Shown: positions 22,254-45,977 of the stretch, piece after piece
How the letters are laid out: each line of letters opens with the position of its first letter
How positions within the stretch are numbered: position 1 is the stretch's first letter
DNA from: Spirochaetaceae bacterium
GTDB taxonomy: Bacteria > Spirochaetota > Spirochaetia > DSM-2461
Direction of reading: 5' to 3'
Assembly: GCA_965224705.1 (NCBI GenBank)
Contig: OZ245056.1
Span: forward strand, 768,001 to 832,000
DNA length: 64,000 nucleotides
The notes under the pieces: model-generated
The model's input: only the letters and a program-made list of their open reading frames with translations
What the model was told of the DNA's origin: nothing
Database searches by the model: none
Program-made: the position numbers and the translations under genes

Positions 22254-24779
22254 ATGAGCAGCTATCCATTTAAAGATATAGAACCCAGATGGCAAAAATA
22301 CTGGGACACGAACAAAACCTTCAAGGTAACAGAAGACGCATCTATTCCCAAAGATAAGCGATGCTACGTTCTGGATATGTTCCCCTACCCATCTGGAGCA
22401 GGATTGCATGTAGGGCATCCTGAAGGATATACCGCTACAGACATTTACTGCCGTTATCTGCGAATGAAGGGATTCAATGTGCTTCATCCCATGGGATATG
22501 ATTCCTTTGGACTTCCTGCCGAAAACTATGCAATTAGAACTGGAACTCCTCCCCAGAGTTCCACCGAAAACAATATCAGGCATTTTACACAGCAGATCAA
22601 GAGTCTGGGCTTCAGTTATGACTGGGACAGGGAAGTTCAAACCCATACTCAGGAATACTATCGGTGGACTCAGTGGATATTTCTTCAACTGTATAAAAAG
22701 GGATTGGCGTATGAAAGTGATATGCCCATCAACTGGTGTTCCAGCTGCAAAACAGGCCTTGCCAATGAAGAAGTGAAGGATGGTAAATGTGAACGCTGCA
22801 GCAGTACTGTTGAACGGCGCAGGATCCGGCAGTGGGTTTTAAAGATTACATCGTATGCAGAAGAACTGCTCAACGATCTTGATGATCTTGATTGGCCGGA
22901 ATCAATAAAATCCATGCAGCGCAACTGGATCGGCCGATCTGAAGGAGCCAATGTTACATTCCTGCTTGCAGGAAAAGCAGCAGACCAGGGACAGCTTGAC
23001 GTCTATACCACACGGCCGGATACCCTTTTCGGAGCAACTTACATGGTATTGGCACCGGAACACCCCCTGGTGAGAAAGATTTGTACCGCCGATCAGAAAA
23101 GTTCCGTTGAATCCTACATTGAGAAGGCAAATCGCAAGAGTGACCTGGAACGCACCGATCTAGCCAGAGAAAAAACCGGTGTGTTTACCGGAGCCTTCGC
23201 CGTGAATCCTGTCAATGGCTTGAATATCCCTATCTGGATTTCTGATTACATTCTTATTTCCTATGGAACCGGGGCCATTATGGCTGTTCCAGGACATGAT
23301 CAAAGGGATTGGGAGTTTGCCAGAGAGTTCAATCTTCCCATTATCGAGGTACTCCAGGGGGGAGATATAACAAAAGAGGCCTTTGTCGGGGACGGACCCC
23401 ATATCAATTCTGACTACCTGAACGGCATGGGTAAAGAGGAAGCCATTGATACAATTATTGAGAGACTTGAAGAAGACGGGAAGGGGTTTCGTACAATTAA
23501 TTACAAACTCAGGGATTGGATCTTCAGCCGACAGCGATACTGGGGCGAACCCATTCCCCTTATTCATTGTCCTGACGATGGCATTGTACCCGTCCCCGAA
23601 GATGAACTTCCTCTCAGACTGCCTGAAGTGAAAAAATATGAACCTTCCGGTACGGGAGAGAGTCCCCTGGCAACGATCGATGAGTGGGTGAACTGTCTTT
23701 GTCCGGTATGCGGCGGAGCGGCAAAACGGGAAACCAATACGATGCCCCAATGGGCTGGTTCCTGCTGGTACTATCTCCGTTACATTGATCCGCACAACGA
23801 GAAAAACTTTGTTGATCCGGATAAGGAAAAGTACTGGATGCCTGTTGACCTTTATGTTGGGGGTGCGGAACATGCGGTGCTCCACCTGCTCTATGCCCGA
23901 TTCTGGCATAAGGTTCTTCATGAATTGGGATTTGTCTCGACATCGGAACCATTCCAGCGTCTCATCAATCAAGGAATGATCACCTCCTTTGCCTACATGC
24001 GCAAGGATAAGACCCTGCTTCCTCTGGATGAAGTAACCATCAATGGTGGTTCATACACGGAGACGTCTACGGGGGAAGTCTTACAACAGGTTGTCGCCAA
24101 GATGTCCAAGACGTTGAAAAATGTAATCAATCCCGATGACATTATCAGTCGATTTGGGGCCGATTCCATGAGGATGTACGAAATGTTTATGGGCCCTCTG
24201 GAAGTATCCATGCCCTGGCAGACTCAAGGCCTGGTCGGTATTCATCGTTTTCTTAACAGAGTGTGGGATGTGGCCACCCGACCCATGACTGATGACGAAC
24301 TGTCTTTGTCACAAACGAAAATCCTGAACAAAACCCTGAAGAAAGTTGGAACAGATACAGCTTCGCTTAACTTCAACACCGCCATTGCCCAGATGATGAT
24401 CTTCATCAATGAGATTTACAGCGAAAAAACCTGCCGGAGAAAGCTGTGGGAACCCTTTGTTCTCATACTTGCTCCGTATGCCCCCCACCTTGGTGAGGAG
24501 ATGTGGCGTATGCTCGGTCATAAAAACACTCTGGCGCACGAGAACTATCCGAACTGGGATGAATCCTGCACTGTTGATGATGAGAAAGAAGTGGTACTCC
24601 AGGTTAACGGCAGGGTGAGATCCCGAATCGTTGCGGCTGCGGGAACATCCGGGACCGAATTGGAGAAACTTGCAGCGGCCGATGAAAAAATCAAAGTCTG
24701 GCTGTCAGGTAAAAATGTGGTTAAAACAGTCACTGTTCCTGACCGTCTGGTTAACTTCGTGGTTAAGAATTCCTGGTGA
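22254..24779 (+). CDS. leuS: Leucine--tRNA ligase
   Basis: [25 protein letters not shown] and QVNG motifs; ATG at 22254. Confidence 0.98.
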
Positions 24780-41621: not shown

Positions 41622-41785
41622 ATCTACTCCTTCGAACCTGTCTTTTTACAATTCAACTTCTGCTGAATCACTCTGCCTTTCCCAAGCAGAGTAATGGATA
41701 AAACAAATCCCATCAATAAAACTTATGATAAAAATTGGAATGTCCTCTATCGACCCAATCATGTATTGATCTGTTATGGTTTACA

Positions 41786-41899
41786 GAGTGTCAGAAAGCT
41801 TGTTAAATGGAAAAACATTTCTTTAGTACGACTGTTTTGATGACTTAGAACCCTGCAATTACCCGGAACAGTGGGAATTCAACAAGCTTTCTGACACTC
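41786..41899. mobile_element. 114 bp MITE with perfect 19 bp IRs (GAGTGTCAGAAAGCTTGTT)
   Basis: GAGTGTCAGAAAGCTTGTT...AACAAGCTTTCTGACACTC; same ends as the element at 44676-45934. Confidence 0.85.
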
Positions 41900-41925
41900 G
41901 CTAAGGCTAACAATCTGGTGCGCGG

Positions 41926-42759: not shown

Positions 42760-42941
42760 TCAAATCCTCCATGATGAACGCAGCTGAAAGACAGTACTAT
42801 GGTCACTTGTTTCACACAGTAGACAGATTCAAAGAACTGGACAGGGATGTATCTTCCGGACACGAACGAGTGCTCACGAATTAAGTTTGAGTCGGCGGCA
42901 TTCAATGCCGGTAACTGTCAATCTCTCAAACAGGAGACTAG

Positions 42942-43103
42942 GAGTCTGTCGGACTTTAAGGCTTCGAGGCGATTTTTGATGATTTTTTCCTGATGCAAGG
43001 CGACAAAAACTTAAGCGTAGCTGGGCTACGTGAGTATTTTGGCAACGCAGCAGCAGGGAAAAAGGGCAAAAATCGAGCCGTGAGGCGTAAGTCCGACAGA
43101 CTC
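42942..43103. mobile_element. 162 bp MITE, family B (IR GAGTCTGTCGGACTT), CTAG target duplication
   Basis: Perfect 15 bp IR; CTAG at 42938-42941 and 43104-43107; near-identical copy at 58239. Confidence 0.9.
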
Positions 43104-44096
43104 CTAGATCTCTTCCCATTCCCCGCTGCCTCCAGAGCGGAATGCAGCGTCAATGATCTTCATATTTGCAATACTGTCGGAACCGGGAATCGAAGCAGTA
43201 CCACCGTTCCGGAATGATTCAGTGAAGTCTTCAAGCATCAGCCTGTACTGATCTGCCGGACCACAGTGCACCTCCCTCTGACTACTGCCATCATCGATAG
43301 CAAGAAGAAGCGGAACGTCGGGGTGAGCATTAAATGGCCGTATAACCTCCAGGGAACCCCTGCTTCCGAACACTGAAACCTTCTGACGAGGAGTCATTCT
43401 TGTAGAAACAGTAAATACAGTCTTTGAACTGCCAAAATCCATTATAGCCGAACAGAGGGTGTCAACATTGGTTACAGCATCGTACTTAATATCTGCGAGA
43501 ACCCGATCTGGTTCCTGGTTCAGGAGAAATCGTGCTGAAGAGATGGCATAACAGCCAATGTCATAAAGAGCGCCGCCGCCAAGATCCCTTTGATTACGAA
43601 TGTTCCGGGGATCATTGTTTGAAAAACTAAAAATTGTATGAATGGACATAATCTCACCGATTTCTCCCGCATTCAGTACTTCTCGAGCTTTTACCCACTG
43701 GGGGTGGAAGCGGTACATAAAGGCCTCCATGGCCAGAACACCTTTCTTTTCAGCGTATTCAAAAGCGTCAGCAGCTTCGACAGCATTCATCGTTATGGGT
43801 TTTTCGCAGAGTACAGCCTTTCCAGCATCAACACATCTCCTGATCCACTCAGCGTGGACACTGTTTGGGAGAGGAATGTATACGGCTTCCACATCCGGGT
43901 CATCAATAACTTCCTGATAGGAACCGTAAGCCCTCTTGAATCCCCATTTCTCAGCAGCTTTCTGAGCACGTACAAGCGTACGGGAACCAAGGGAGATGGG
44001 GTCTATCAGATATGAATCTGTAATTGATTTGTGCATGCGAAGACCATAATGGCCGGAAACTCCGAGGACACCAAGTTTTAAGGGCTGCATATTCAC
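43104..44096 (-). CDS. Gfo/Idh/MocA oxidoreductase
   Basis: YIPLPN..H, LCEKP, EAFMYRFHPQ and GGGALYDIGCY motifs. Confidence 0.9.
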   Translation of the reverse strand: MNMQPLKLGVLGVSGHYGLRMHKSITDSYLIDPISLGSRTLVRAQKAAEKWGFKRAYGSYQEVIDDPDVEAVYIPLPNSVHAEWIRRCVDAGKAVLCEKPITMNAVEAADAFEYAEKKGVLAMEAFMYRFHPQWVKAREVLNAGEIGEIMSIHTIFSFSNNDPRNIRNQRDLGGGALYDIGCYAISSARFLLNQEPDRVLADIKYDAVTNVDTLCSAIMDFGSSKTVFTVSTRMTPRQKVSVFGSRGSLEVIRPFNAHPDVPLLLAIDDGSSQREVHCGPADQYRLMLEDFTESFRNGGTASIPGSDSIANMKIIDAAFRSGGSGEWEEI

Positions 44097-44580: not shown

Positions 44581-44675
44581 AGCGGTTTCTCCCAATCGTT
44601 AGTAGTAAGGATACTTGACCAGGCATTCTTTTTTCAATGGGACGTCAGTAGTTGGAAGAAGTTTTATCCCCATAA

Positions 44676-45934
44676 GAGTGTCAGAAAGCCTGTAAAACCT
44701 CCTTCAACCCATTCCGGGAGTCCAATCTCCTCCTAAACCTTCACATACAGCGGATCATAACGGCCGGATTCCACTCCCGGATTACGCCACTCACACAGCC
44801 AGGTTTTCTTCTCTGCCACACCCAGATTGACCTTGCTCAAAAAGGCCCTCTTCAACCAGTACCTGTTCACTGCCTTGCGAAGTTTCTTCCTGGTGATCCC
44901 GGCCTTCTCAGCATGAGTTGTGTCCTTCTTCTTCCGGGCCTCCTTCACCCGCCATGGAATCATGCAGTTGTGGTAGTGACGATAAAGAACAAATCGTATC
45001 ATCATCGCAGCGGGAGATTTGGCAAACTTGACCGTCTCCCTGACATGATCTGAAATATCTTTTCTGATCTGACGGTCAATGTAGTTAATAGGAAACATCG
45101 GGTTATCCATGGTTCTGGCCGACCTTGAAGATGTCATGACCCGGATGAAGAAGTGGAGAAAATGCTCGGTTTTCGCAAAGGCCCGGGTGTATGCCCTGTG
45201 CATATCCGTGAAGAGAAGCTTATGCACAACCTTTTTCTTCATAAGGAATTGAATCAAATCTTCTGTCAGACTTCTCACCGATTTCTCAATGGCCCCGGGA
45301 TCCGCCCTGCCCCGGGCCTCCAGCTTTTTTCGGATCAATTTCTGACGGGAAGTCATTCTTCCTTTCCTCCTGAGATTGGCAAACCCGGTCTCATAGATGA
45401 ACTCGGACTCACTTCCGGCAAAGATGTTGATGTGGTTGGGATAGTATTGAGAGAAGGAAAAGGACTCCAGTCCATCGGCGGCCATGGATTCCCTCATGGG
45501 GAGTTTTTTCAACAGCCGGGCATGGATTGCCATGGCGGAACGGGCCAATCTTTCGCATCGGTTCTGTACCGTATCGGAAGAAACCTCCAGATGACGGCTG
45601 ATGTCATTCACACCGGAAGAGGTCACCAGATGTTGGAAAAGTTCCTCGTAGTCGATGACTTTTTTCGCATAGTAATCGATTGAAAAAGTCTGGGAGGAAA
45701 AGGTTCTTTTGCAGTCATTGCAAATGTAGCGCTGGACTGTTCCAAATGCTTCTGTGTGGTAGGAACTATGTATCGAAAACCAGTTTTTTTGCTTCGGGGC
45801 ACTGAAATGGATACATTTCGGGTTGGGGCAGTGGGGGAATAACATGGTCAAACTCCTTTATAAATTGTTTTCTTACTATGTTATAACGAGCCTGACAGGA
45901 GTTTTTTGCTGCATTAACAAGCTTTCTGACACTG
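44676..45934 (-). mobile_element. ~1.26 kb IS-like element with ~20 bp terminal IRs
   Basis: AGTGTCAGAAAGCCTGTAAA at 44677 and TTAACAAGCTTTCTGACACT ending at 45933 tightly enclose one transposase-like ORF. Confidence 0.8.
44733..45845 (-). CDS. Putative transposase (IS1-like Zn ribbon, HTH and RNase H-type core)
   Basis: CPNPKC...QRYICNDCKRTF, HTH (ISRHLEVSSDTV), ADGLES, FTDMHRAY and NYIDRQIR; AAGGAG RBS before ATG 45845. Confidence 0.75.
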   Translation of the reverse strand: MLFPHCPNPKCIHFSAPKQKNWFSIHSSYHTEAFGTVQRYICNDCKRTFSSQTFSIDYYAKKVIDYEELFQHLVTSSGVNDISRHLEVSSDTVQNRCERLARSAMAIHARLLKKLPMRESMAADGLESFSFSQYYPNHINIFAGSESEFIYETGFANLRRKGRMTSRQKLIRKKLEARGRADPGAIEKSVRSLTEDLIQFLMKKKVVHKLLFTDMHRAYTRAFAKTEHFLHFFIRVMTSSRSARTMDNPMFPINYIDRQIRKDISDHVRETVKFAKSPAAMMIRFVLYRHYHNCMIPWRVKEARKKKDTTHAEKAGITRKKLRKAVNRYWLKRAFLSKVNLGVAEKKTWLCEWRNPGVESGRYDPLYVKV

Positions 45935-45977
45935 GTTAAGGGATAGGAAGAAACATGACATTATGGCACGATGAGTC

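Follow-up and report, generated by a model that had tools for sequence, protein, structure and literature searches.

The insertion sequence upstream of folP

The window, that is, the whole 64,000-nucleotide stretch of a spirochaete chromosome analysed here, carries on its minus strand an insertion sequence (IS) of 1263 bp (44674..45936), one of seven intact copies in the 3.0-Mb, single-contig host genome (G000). The element is a genuine multicopy IS of spirochaete bacteria. Its 370-aa transposase ORF (44733..45845, minus strand; ATG at 45845, stop at 44733) is preceded by the ribosome-binding site AAAGGAG (45853..45859, minus strand), recognised from the sequence, which bears out the original prediction of a single intact frame with its own ribosome-binding site. 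A promoter scan gave results at chance level. Residue numbers follow the 372-aa frame that begins at the listed TTG start (45851) and not the 370-aa ATG frame.

All parts of the protein are encoded on the minus strand. The N-terminal Zn ribbon (C8, C13, C44 and C47; 45711..45830), kept in 219-223 of 224 homologues and matching NF050000 weakly, below the cut-off, is followed by a three-helix HTH (residues 68-116; 45504..45650), delimited by the structure model and profile alignment, and by an RNase H catalytic core (residues 123-300; 44952..45485), in which a helical insert (residues ~160-205) separates the first and second Asp. The motifs noticed earlier, C8-x4-C13 ... C44-x2-C47, the HTH, ADG, TD and NYIDRQIR, are all present and conserved.

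Each end of the element consists of a conserved inverted repeat (IR) core and a variable 4-nt tip. Upstream of the transposase, these lie at 45913..45932 and 45933..45936 (both minus strand; the tip reads ACCA inward), and downstream at 44678..44697 and 44674..44677 (both plus strand; tip AAGA). The repeats of ~20 bp with 18/20 matches described before are found for 44677-44696 versus 45914-45933, and 17/20 match from 44676 and 45934, where the ends had been placed, starting with GAGTGTC. That placement does not hold, because 9-bp target duplications and empty sites in sister elements set the boundary 4 nt out from the GTGTC core on both sides, and the element therefore extends from 44674 to 45936, with ends of the form N-N-N-A-G-T-G-T-C. 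Just outside it stand two target-like 9-mers (plus strand), one at 44665..44673, which does not duplicate the other flank, and one at 45937..45945, within the native folP upstream region. They match at 2/9 positions, and the window copy indeed has no visible target duplication, as first noted.

Copies, ends and target sites

All seven full copies in G000 have open frames and unrelated flanks, with 95.9-98.0% identity to the window copy, and many fragments exist besides. The exact end motif occurs 178 times in this genome (none for the backward-read control pattern) and 211 times with one mismatch (control, 4); a two-mismatch pattern, used in the site comparison with the sister species G009, yields 68 false matches in the control for 244. 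Left and right ends could be joined into 80 pairs, three of which were doubtful and removed before counting; among the remaining 77 are 18 of IS type and two MITE types, one of 220 bp (19 pairs) and one of 111 bp (16 pairs). Remnants of the element and small elements dependent on it (MITEs, 111 and 220 bp) number in the hundreds in its host genome. One MITE of the 111-bp type, non-autonomous and sharing the IR core, lies in the window itself (41784..41901, no strand assigned); its flanking 9-mers match at 6/9 positions. The window also contains unpaired ends of the 220-bp MITE type at 24776 and 713. At 42938-43107 there is an unrelated repeat, ~168 bp long and bounded by inverted ends of its own; it looks MITE- or REP-like, has ~141 copies of at least 100 bp in G000 and is very deeply covered in metagenome runs. 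Another transposase frame of G000, 344 aa long (L295; G000:137165), was assigned by eye as ISL3-like.

Homologues are numerous: one search returned 797, and a cluster search gave 501 up to E 1e-30 and 1977 up to 0.001, with members called hypothetical or transposase-like by their sources (for clusters, among the best 150 of the 1977). Spirochaete titles are attached to 76 of the 79 listed loci and Bacteroidota titles, on contigs of at most 3 kb, to the other three. Matches were obtained in 16/41 near relatives and in 5/301 genomes across the phylum (own genome counted in), and tblastn against plasmids, phages and viral contigs gave no match. Our literature searches found no description of the group, a weak negative since the main IS reviews fell outside them. 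Standard models miss this group, with its ~500 protein clusters at an E-value of 1e-30 or better, though a single genome holds at least 178 of its ends. With a name for the group, mobilome counts would be corrected and synteny breaks of host-associated spirochaetes explained.

Related IRs bound the homologous ORFs at 43 of the 51 untruncated loci (of 63 in total); the 43 elements were chosen by eye, and ~3 of their cores are probably misplaced. The ends take the form N-N-N-A-G-T-G-Y-C. Among the 86 ends of these further elements, in which copies from one genome are not independent, position 4 is A in 81 and positions 6-7 are TG (81 and 79), while position 1 (A25, C16, G27, T18) and position 2 (A29, C8, G15, T34) show no conserved terminal GG, in agreement with the initial view that the ends are unlike those of IS1. 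The tips also vary far more than the interior, by 12-75% versus 2-4% among the full copies of G000 and by 17.9% versus 4.1% among those copies of another genome, G001, that have perfect duplications. TGT at positions 6-8, as in N-N-N-A-G-T-G-T-C, is likewise reported for the terminal inverted repeats (TIRs) of IS26 and ISCth4 in passages of one source (PMC8477213); the register is shared, whereas the G at the tip of IS26 and ISCth4 is absent here.

As a trait of the whole family, a missing target duplication is not supported by sister elements. The element of G001 has 60% protein identity; 18 of its copies were fetched and 17 resolved, of which eight show a perfect 9-bp duplication in the 4-nt-out register, against none in shuffled pairings, and two more match at 8/9 and 7/9. 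The same register gives 10 of 77 pairs with at least 7/9 matches in G000, against 1.1 expected, and an 8/9 duplication was found in one of six copies in G249. Moreover, for elements of G009 (32 paired, in the fetched fifth of the genome), G000 offers two clean empty sites, each with the 9-mer once and the tips missing; a third, nearly clean site is that of a G000 MITE, with a few extra bases in its G009 counterpart, and four other candidates flagged in this comparison were not clean. The duplicated target is 9 bp long and AT-rich, approximately W-A-W-n-n-C-W-T-W. Duplications abutting the GTGTC core or lying 1-3 nt out showed no excess over shuffled pairings in G000, and in a scan for longer or asymmetric duplications the sole enriched diagonal was that of 9 bp at a 4-nt shift.

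Retention of the duplication is nonetheless uneven. Within G000 it is kept in 3/19 pairs of the 220-bp and 4/16 of the 111-bp MITE type and missing in all 18 IS-type pairs; it is also missing in 12 of 13 copies of G012, and 0 of the 43 further elements from other loci reach 8/9. Joining flanks inside G000 revealed no convincing empty sites; an apparent 8-bp repeat from that search lay within another repeat family and was discarded. The target consensus is still strong in the G000 flanks (T at -6 in 116/160). According to a study of another symbiont genome, in the part available, 83% of IS copies there are without a duplication (PMC3196728), so that duplication loss, being common for any IS in symbiont genomes, need not reflect properties of this transposase.

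The transposase and its relation to named families

The query reaches no Pfam or NCBIfam cut-off, and its earlier description as uncharacterised therefore stands in the sense that no such model names it. The IS1 model (NF033558) is matched with 32 bits against a cut-off of 100, through the N-terminal Zn-HTH part only. Weak matches to this model (E 0.01 or better) occur in 68 of 78 members and to ISL3 in 62 of 78, and PF03400 was touched by 1 of 40 distant members (E 0.024). The predicted structure (pLDDT 93) has an RNase H/DDE fold, as the original prediction expected, with ISCth4, retroviral integrases, Tn5 and TnsB as top matches. ISCth4, an IS256-family member, ranks first (Z 11.5, rmsd 7.7, 246 aligned), a rank that IS1 itself may also give it (a single-sequence control model of an IS1 transposase reached a pLDDT of 39), and the absence of IS1, IS6 and IS1595 structures among the fold matches does not exclude these families.

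Profile alignment points to IS1. The 224-member profile aligns with 83 IS1 transposases (a narrow set, including ISMac16) at 96.4% (HHalign, local, E 1.1e-9, 221 columns), collinearly over the whole length of IS1; the match ranges from 96 to 98%, mostly through the Zn-HTH part, and the reversed control gives 0.2%. Against IS1595, represented by nine sequences, the alignment reaches 84.8% and ends before the core does. The link to IS1 comes from the N-terminal half and from motif spacing, since the catalytic core by itself has only a weak match to IS1 (3.3%, E 0.013, in the same register as at full length), no better than its match to IS1595 (4.1%, E 0.01). Together, the structure model and the collinear profile uphold the proposed IS1-like layout of Zn ribbon, HTH and RNase H core.

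The IS1 register allows residues of the active site to be assigned. The first and second catalytic Asp are D126 (45474..45476; IS1 D99) and D216 (45204..45206; IS1 D155), conserved in 220 and 221 of the 224 homologues, with 40 residues between the second Asp and the third position. The position of the catalytic Glu of IS1 (E180) is occupied by N256 (45084..45086; 216/224), that of IS1 N183 by D259 (45075..45077; 210/224), one helical turn further on and a possible substitute metal ligand, and that of IS1 R187 by R263, seven residues past N256 and present in 222/224. Because the IS1 Glu aligns without gaps to Asn256 and not to Asp259, the third catalytic position would, by homology, be Asn256 and the triad D-D-N. 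This makes the D-D-D triad of the original prediction doubtful, although Asp259 is conserved and could act as the ligand.

Quite possibly, though somewhat short of an even chance, the working triad of the same element is nevertheless D126-D216-D259, with the carboxylate shifted by one helical turn and Asn256 in a supporting role. Amides bind metal less well than carboxylates do, and position 259 is Asp in 210 of the 224 homologues and Glu in six. The swap is also reciprocal, N..D...R in 205 of 224 members as against E..N...R in 83 of 83 IS1 proteins, and N256 and D259 are predicted to lie on one helix (253-263). However, N256 falls on the IS1 Glu in a gap-free register that also keeps the Arg at +7 (R263) and the R-x-T-x-x-F motif at IS1 spacing, while the residue at +7 from D259 is a variable hydrophobic one, and position 259 is His in three homologues and Asn in one. 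Whichever residue serves, the exchange of E-x-x-N for N-x-x-D constitutes a natural experiment on the third metal ligand in IS1-type transposases.

With IS1, the element shares the order of its Zn ribbon, HTH and RNase H core, the motifs D, TDxxxxY, helix-x7-R and R-x-T-x-x-F/Y in register, and a duplication of 8-9 bp; IS1 duplicates 9 bp, has ends beginning with GG, and is known for adjacent deletions, circles and cis preference. For ISCaa4, a duplication of 8 bp is given in part of one report (PMC3196728). Unlike IS1, the element has N-x-x-D in place of E-x-x-N and D-G-x-E in place of D-E-x-H, a C-x4-C first knuckle, a protein of 370 instead of 226 aa that includes a helical insert and 70 extra residues at its C-terminus, a length of 1.23-1.40 kb instead of about 0.75 kb, one ORF without a frameshift, and no conserved terminal GG. 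We conclude that it is of IS1 type in its working but departs from IS1 in the model cut-off, the triad and the terminal GG, and that it possibly forms a family of its own.

A place for it within the IS1 family, as an ordinary if divergent member, or in an ISNCY group already in ISfinder, seems improbable to us. Within IS1, the candidate home would be the single-ORF, ISMhu11-like group. The collinearity over the whole length, the 68 members that match NF033558, the 9-bp duplication at AT-rich targets and the nearest named Atlas cluster, which is of IS1 type (0.93), would all fit such a placement. Atlas matches of the core alone are all below 0.9. The marginal similarity of the core, the 32 of 100 bits confined to the N-terminal part, the differences in protein length and architecture, the missing GG and the names given to members by their sources argue against it.

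Other families are more distant. Some groups of IS1595 have Asn in the triad and loose first bases, and the N-terminal Zn finger and single ORF are common features; however, PF12762 (DDE_Tnp_IS1595) has no match in G000 and NF033547 is touched by 1 of 78 members. The duplication of the IS1595 family is given as 8 bp in an excerpt of its description (PMC8101967). In IS26, GG at positions 1-2 is nearly invariant and required for copy-in, as parts of one account have it (PMC8477213). Tested by ends and domain, the present element differs from IS6/IS26, with no terminal GG and PF13610 touched by 1 of 78 members, and its simple insertions with duplication are frequent in G001.

Movement, persistence and the folP breakpoint

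Several observations bear on the age of the copies. In the sister species G009 (~90% identity in this region), the site of the window copy is occupied by a deleted copy, and at 6 of the 7 G000 copy sites an end lies no more than 24 nt away. In six of six comparisons the G000 copy closest to a G009 remnant is not its positional partner, with small identity gaps (0.1-2 points), and pS among the G000 copies is 0.10, compared with 0.18-0.23 for two host genes; pN/pS is 0.12 among the seven G000 copies, 0.13 in G001 and 0.18 in G012. Since the sites are shared with G009, yet positional partners are not the closest copies and pS is half that of host genes, we infer that the G000 sites are old, predating the split of the two species, that their interiors have been refreshed, and that function has been under selection. 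Intact, selected copies at pre-split sites bear on how ISs persist under vertical inheritance.

Approximately four orthologous G000/G009 sites, as read by eye, carry different end types, and at 29 orthologous ends positions -13..-1 differ at 24%, versus 12% further out. Local hypermutation beside the ends was considered and is not claimed, because the excess is merely two-fold and the reference flanks were chosen by BLAST. There is no sign of present-day movement in G000. Two abutted end pairs with 5-6-bp spacers occur in that genome, and the lone 'duplication' of G012 reads right end, 9 bp, left end, the junction expected from a circle junction or a tandem.

We consider it likely that the element is an autonomous IS of a mostly spirochaetal group and a distant sister of IS1 that operates as follows. 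The Zn-HTH part would bind TGT at 6-8, the subterminal motif shared with IS26 and ISCth4, and thereby fix the cutting distance, so that positions 1-3 would hardly be read, and D126, D216 and the N256/D259 helix would form the active site. For ISCth4, one study describes short spacers and an attack whose distance from a subterminal site is fixed (PMC7780238); the free tips offer a test of end cleavage by such a subterminal ruler. Simple insertions would occur, with a short-spacer circle as the probable intermediate. In addition, one end may often attack a target on the same chromosome, leading to a deletion or inversion in which one flank is replaced and the duplication erased, and recombination with circles or with other copies may renew resident copies where they sit.

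One-ended flank replacement fits the orientation of the target motif: among 102 ends without a duplication, C-W-T-W, a motif chosen after inspecting the data, faces the element 29 times and away from it 7 times (p 3e-4), as in the intramolecular replicative transposition of the IS6 family, which yields deletions or inversions and split duplications according to sections of one review (PMC7986276). The split duplications expected after inversions did not emerge convincingly across copies in searches of G000, G001, G012 and G022, which counts against such an attack. A bolder proposal, a new family beside IS1, IS1595 and IS6 that unites a rewired active site (with Asp259 or an Asn triad), ruler cutting, free tips, long persistence in spirochaete lineages by in-place refreshing and reshuffling of the chromosome by one-ended attacks, remains tentative and, in our estimation, somewhat doubtful.

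A distinctly unlikely alternative is that the element is immobile in G000, its copies being old residents whose tips and duplications decayed neutrally and whose interior is kept by gene conversion or host selection. The sites shared with G009 and the raised divergence at -13..-1 would agree with this, as would gene conversion of IS copies in Wolbachia wBm, reported in the portion consulted of one paper (PMC3196728). Neutral decay does not sit well with flanks that keep the target consensus while their left and right 9-mers match at chance, nor with tips that vary even in the G001 copies with perfect duplications, and purifying selection on all seven ORFs is easier to explain by passage through transposition.

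Under the preferred reading of a mobile, autonomous IS, the window copy would be an old resident at a rearrangement breakpoint. The gene found upstream of folP in 7 of 10 relatives sits at G000:1712800 (of the other three, one has a different folP neighbour and two have no match); because it lies 900 kb away in G000, the window copy joins two loci. The roughly inverted flanks noticed at first are present, and they look inverted because both fit the polar target consensus read toward the element: what looked like a 'hairpin' is a pair of target-like 9-mers at the rearrangement breakpoint before folP.

Two further readings deserve minimal credence. Membership in the IS256/Mutator family, suggested by the top fold match of ISCth4, its TIRs with A-G-T-G-T at 4-8 (in passages of PMC8477213) and duplications of 8-9 bp, is contradicted by the profile alignment (2%, E 0.024, against 14 IS256-like proteins) and by the 40 residues after the second Asp, where ISCth4 has 107 and an insertion domain with C/DxxH before its Glu (PMC7780238). 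A search for Zn-type IS256 variants gave none over the cut-off. Insertion into DNA hairpins without a duplication, as originally suggested, would accord with the inverted flanks of the window copy and a slight excess of inverted identity at -4..-2, but there is none at -13..-5 beyond base composition, the flanks come from different loci, and the direct 9-bp duplications and empty sites refute it for sister elements.

The window stretch is present in runs of one study labelled mollusc metagenome; joints listed for four runs (contigs only) included neither an empty allele nor a circle joint at this locus. G012 (L018 / L050) carries its own element, 61% identical, before folP; it sits at another position and is oriented the other way, an independent insertion into the same intergenic region. 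At or next to G000 end sites, G009 carries another mobile element with ends GGGYACCTCTAAAAA (e.g. L103, L104, L115, L126, L131 and L154), reflecting either shared hot spots or nested insertion. Beside a tRNA-like sequence, the element at L111 in G009 is flipped relative to G000:2721391-2722645, and two G001 copies at different loci (L076 and L077) have an upstream flank in common within a long tandem-repeat region, which suggests segmental duplication.
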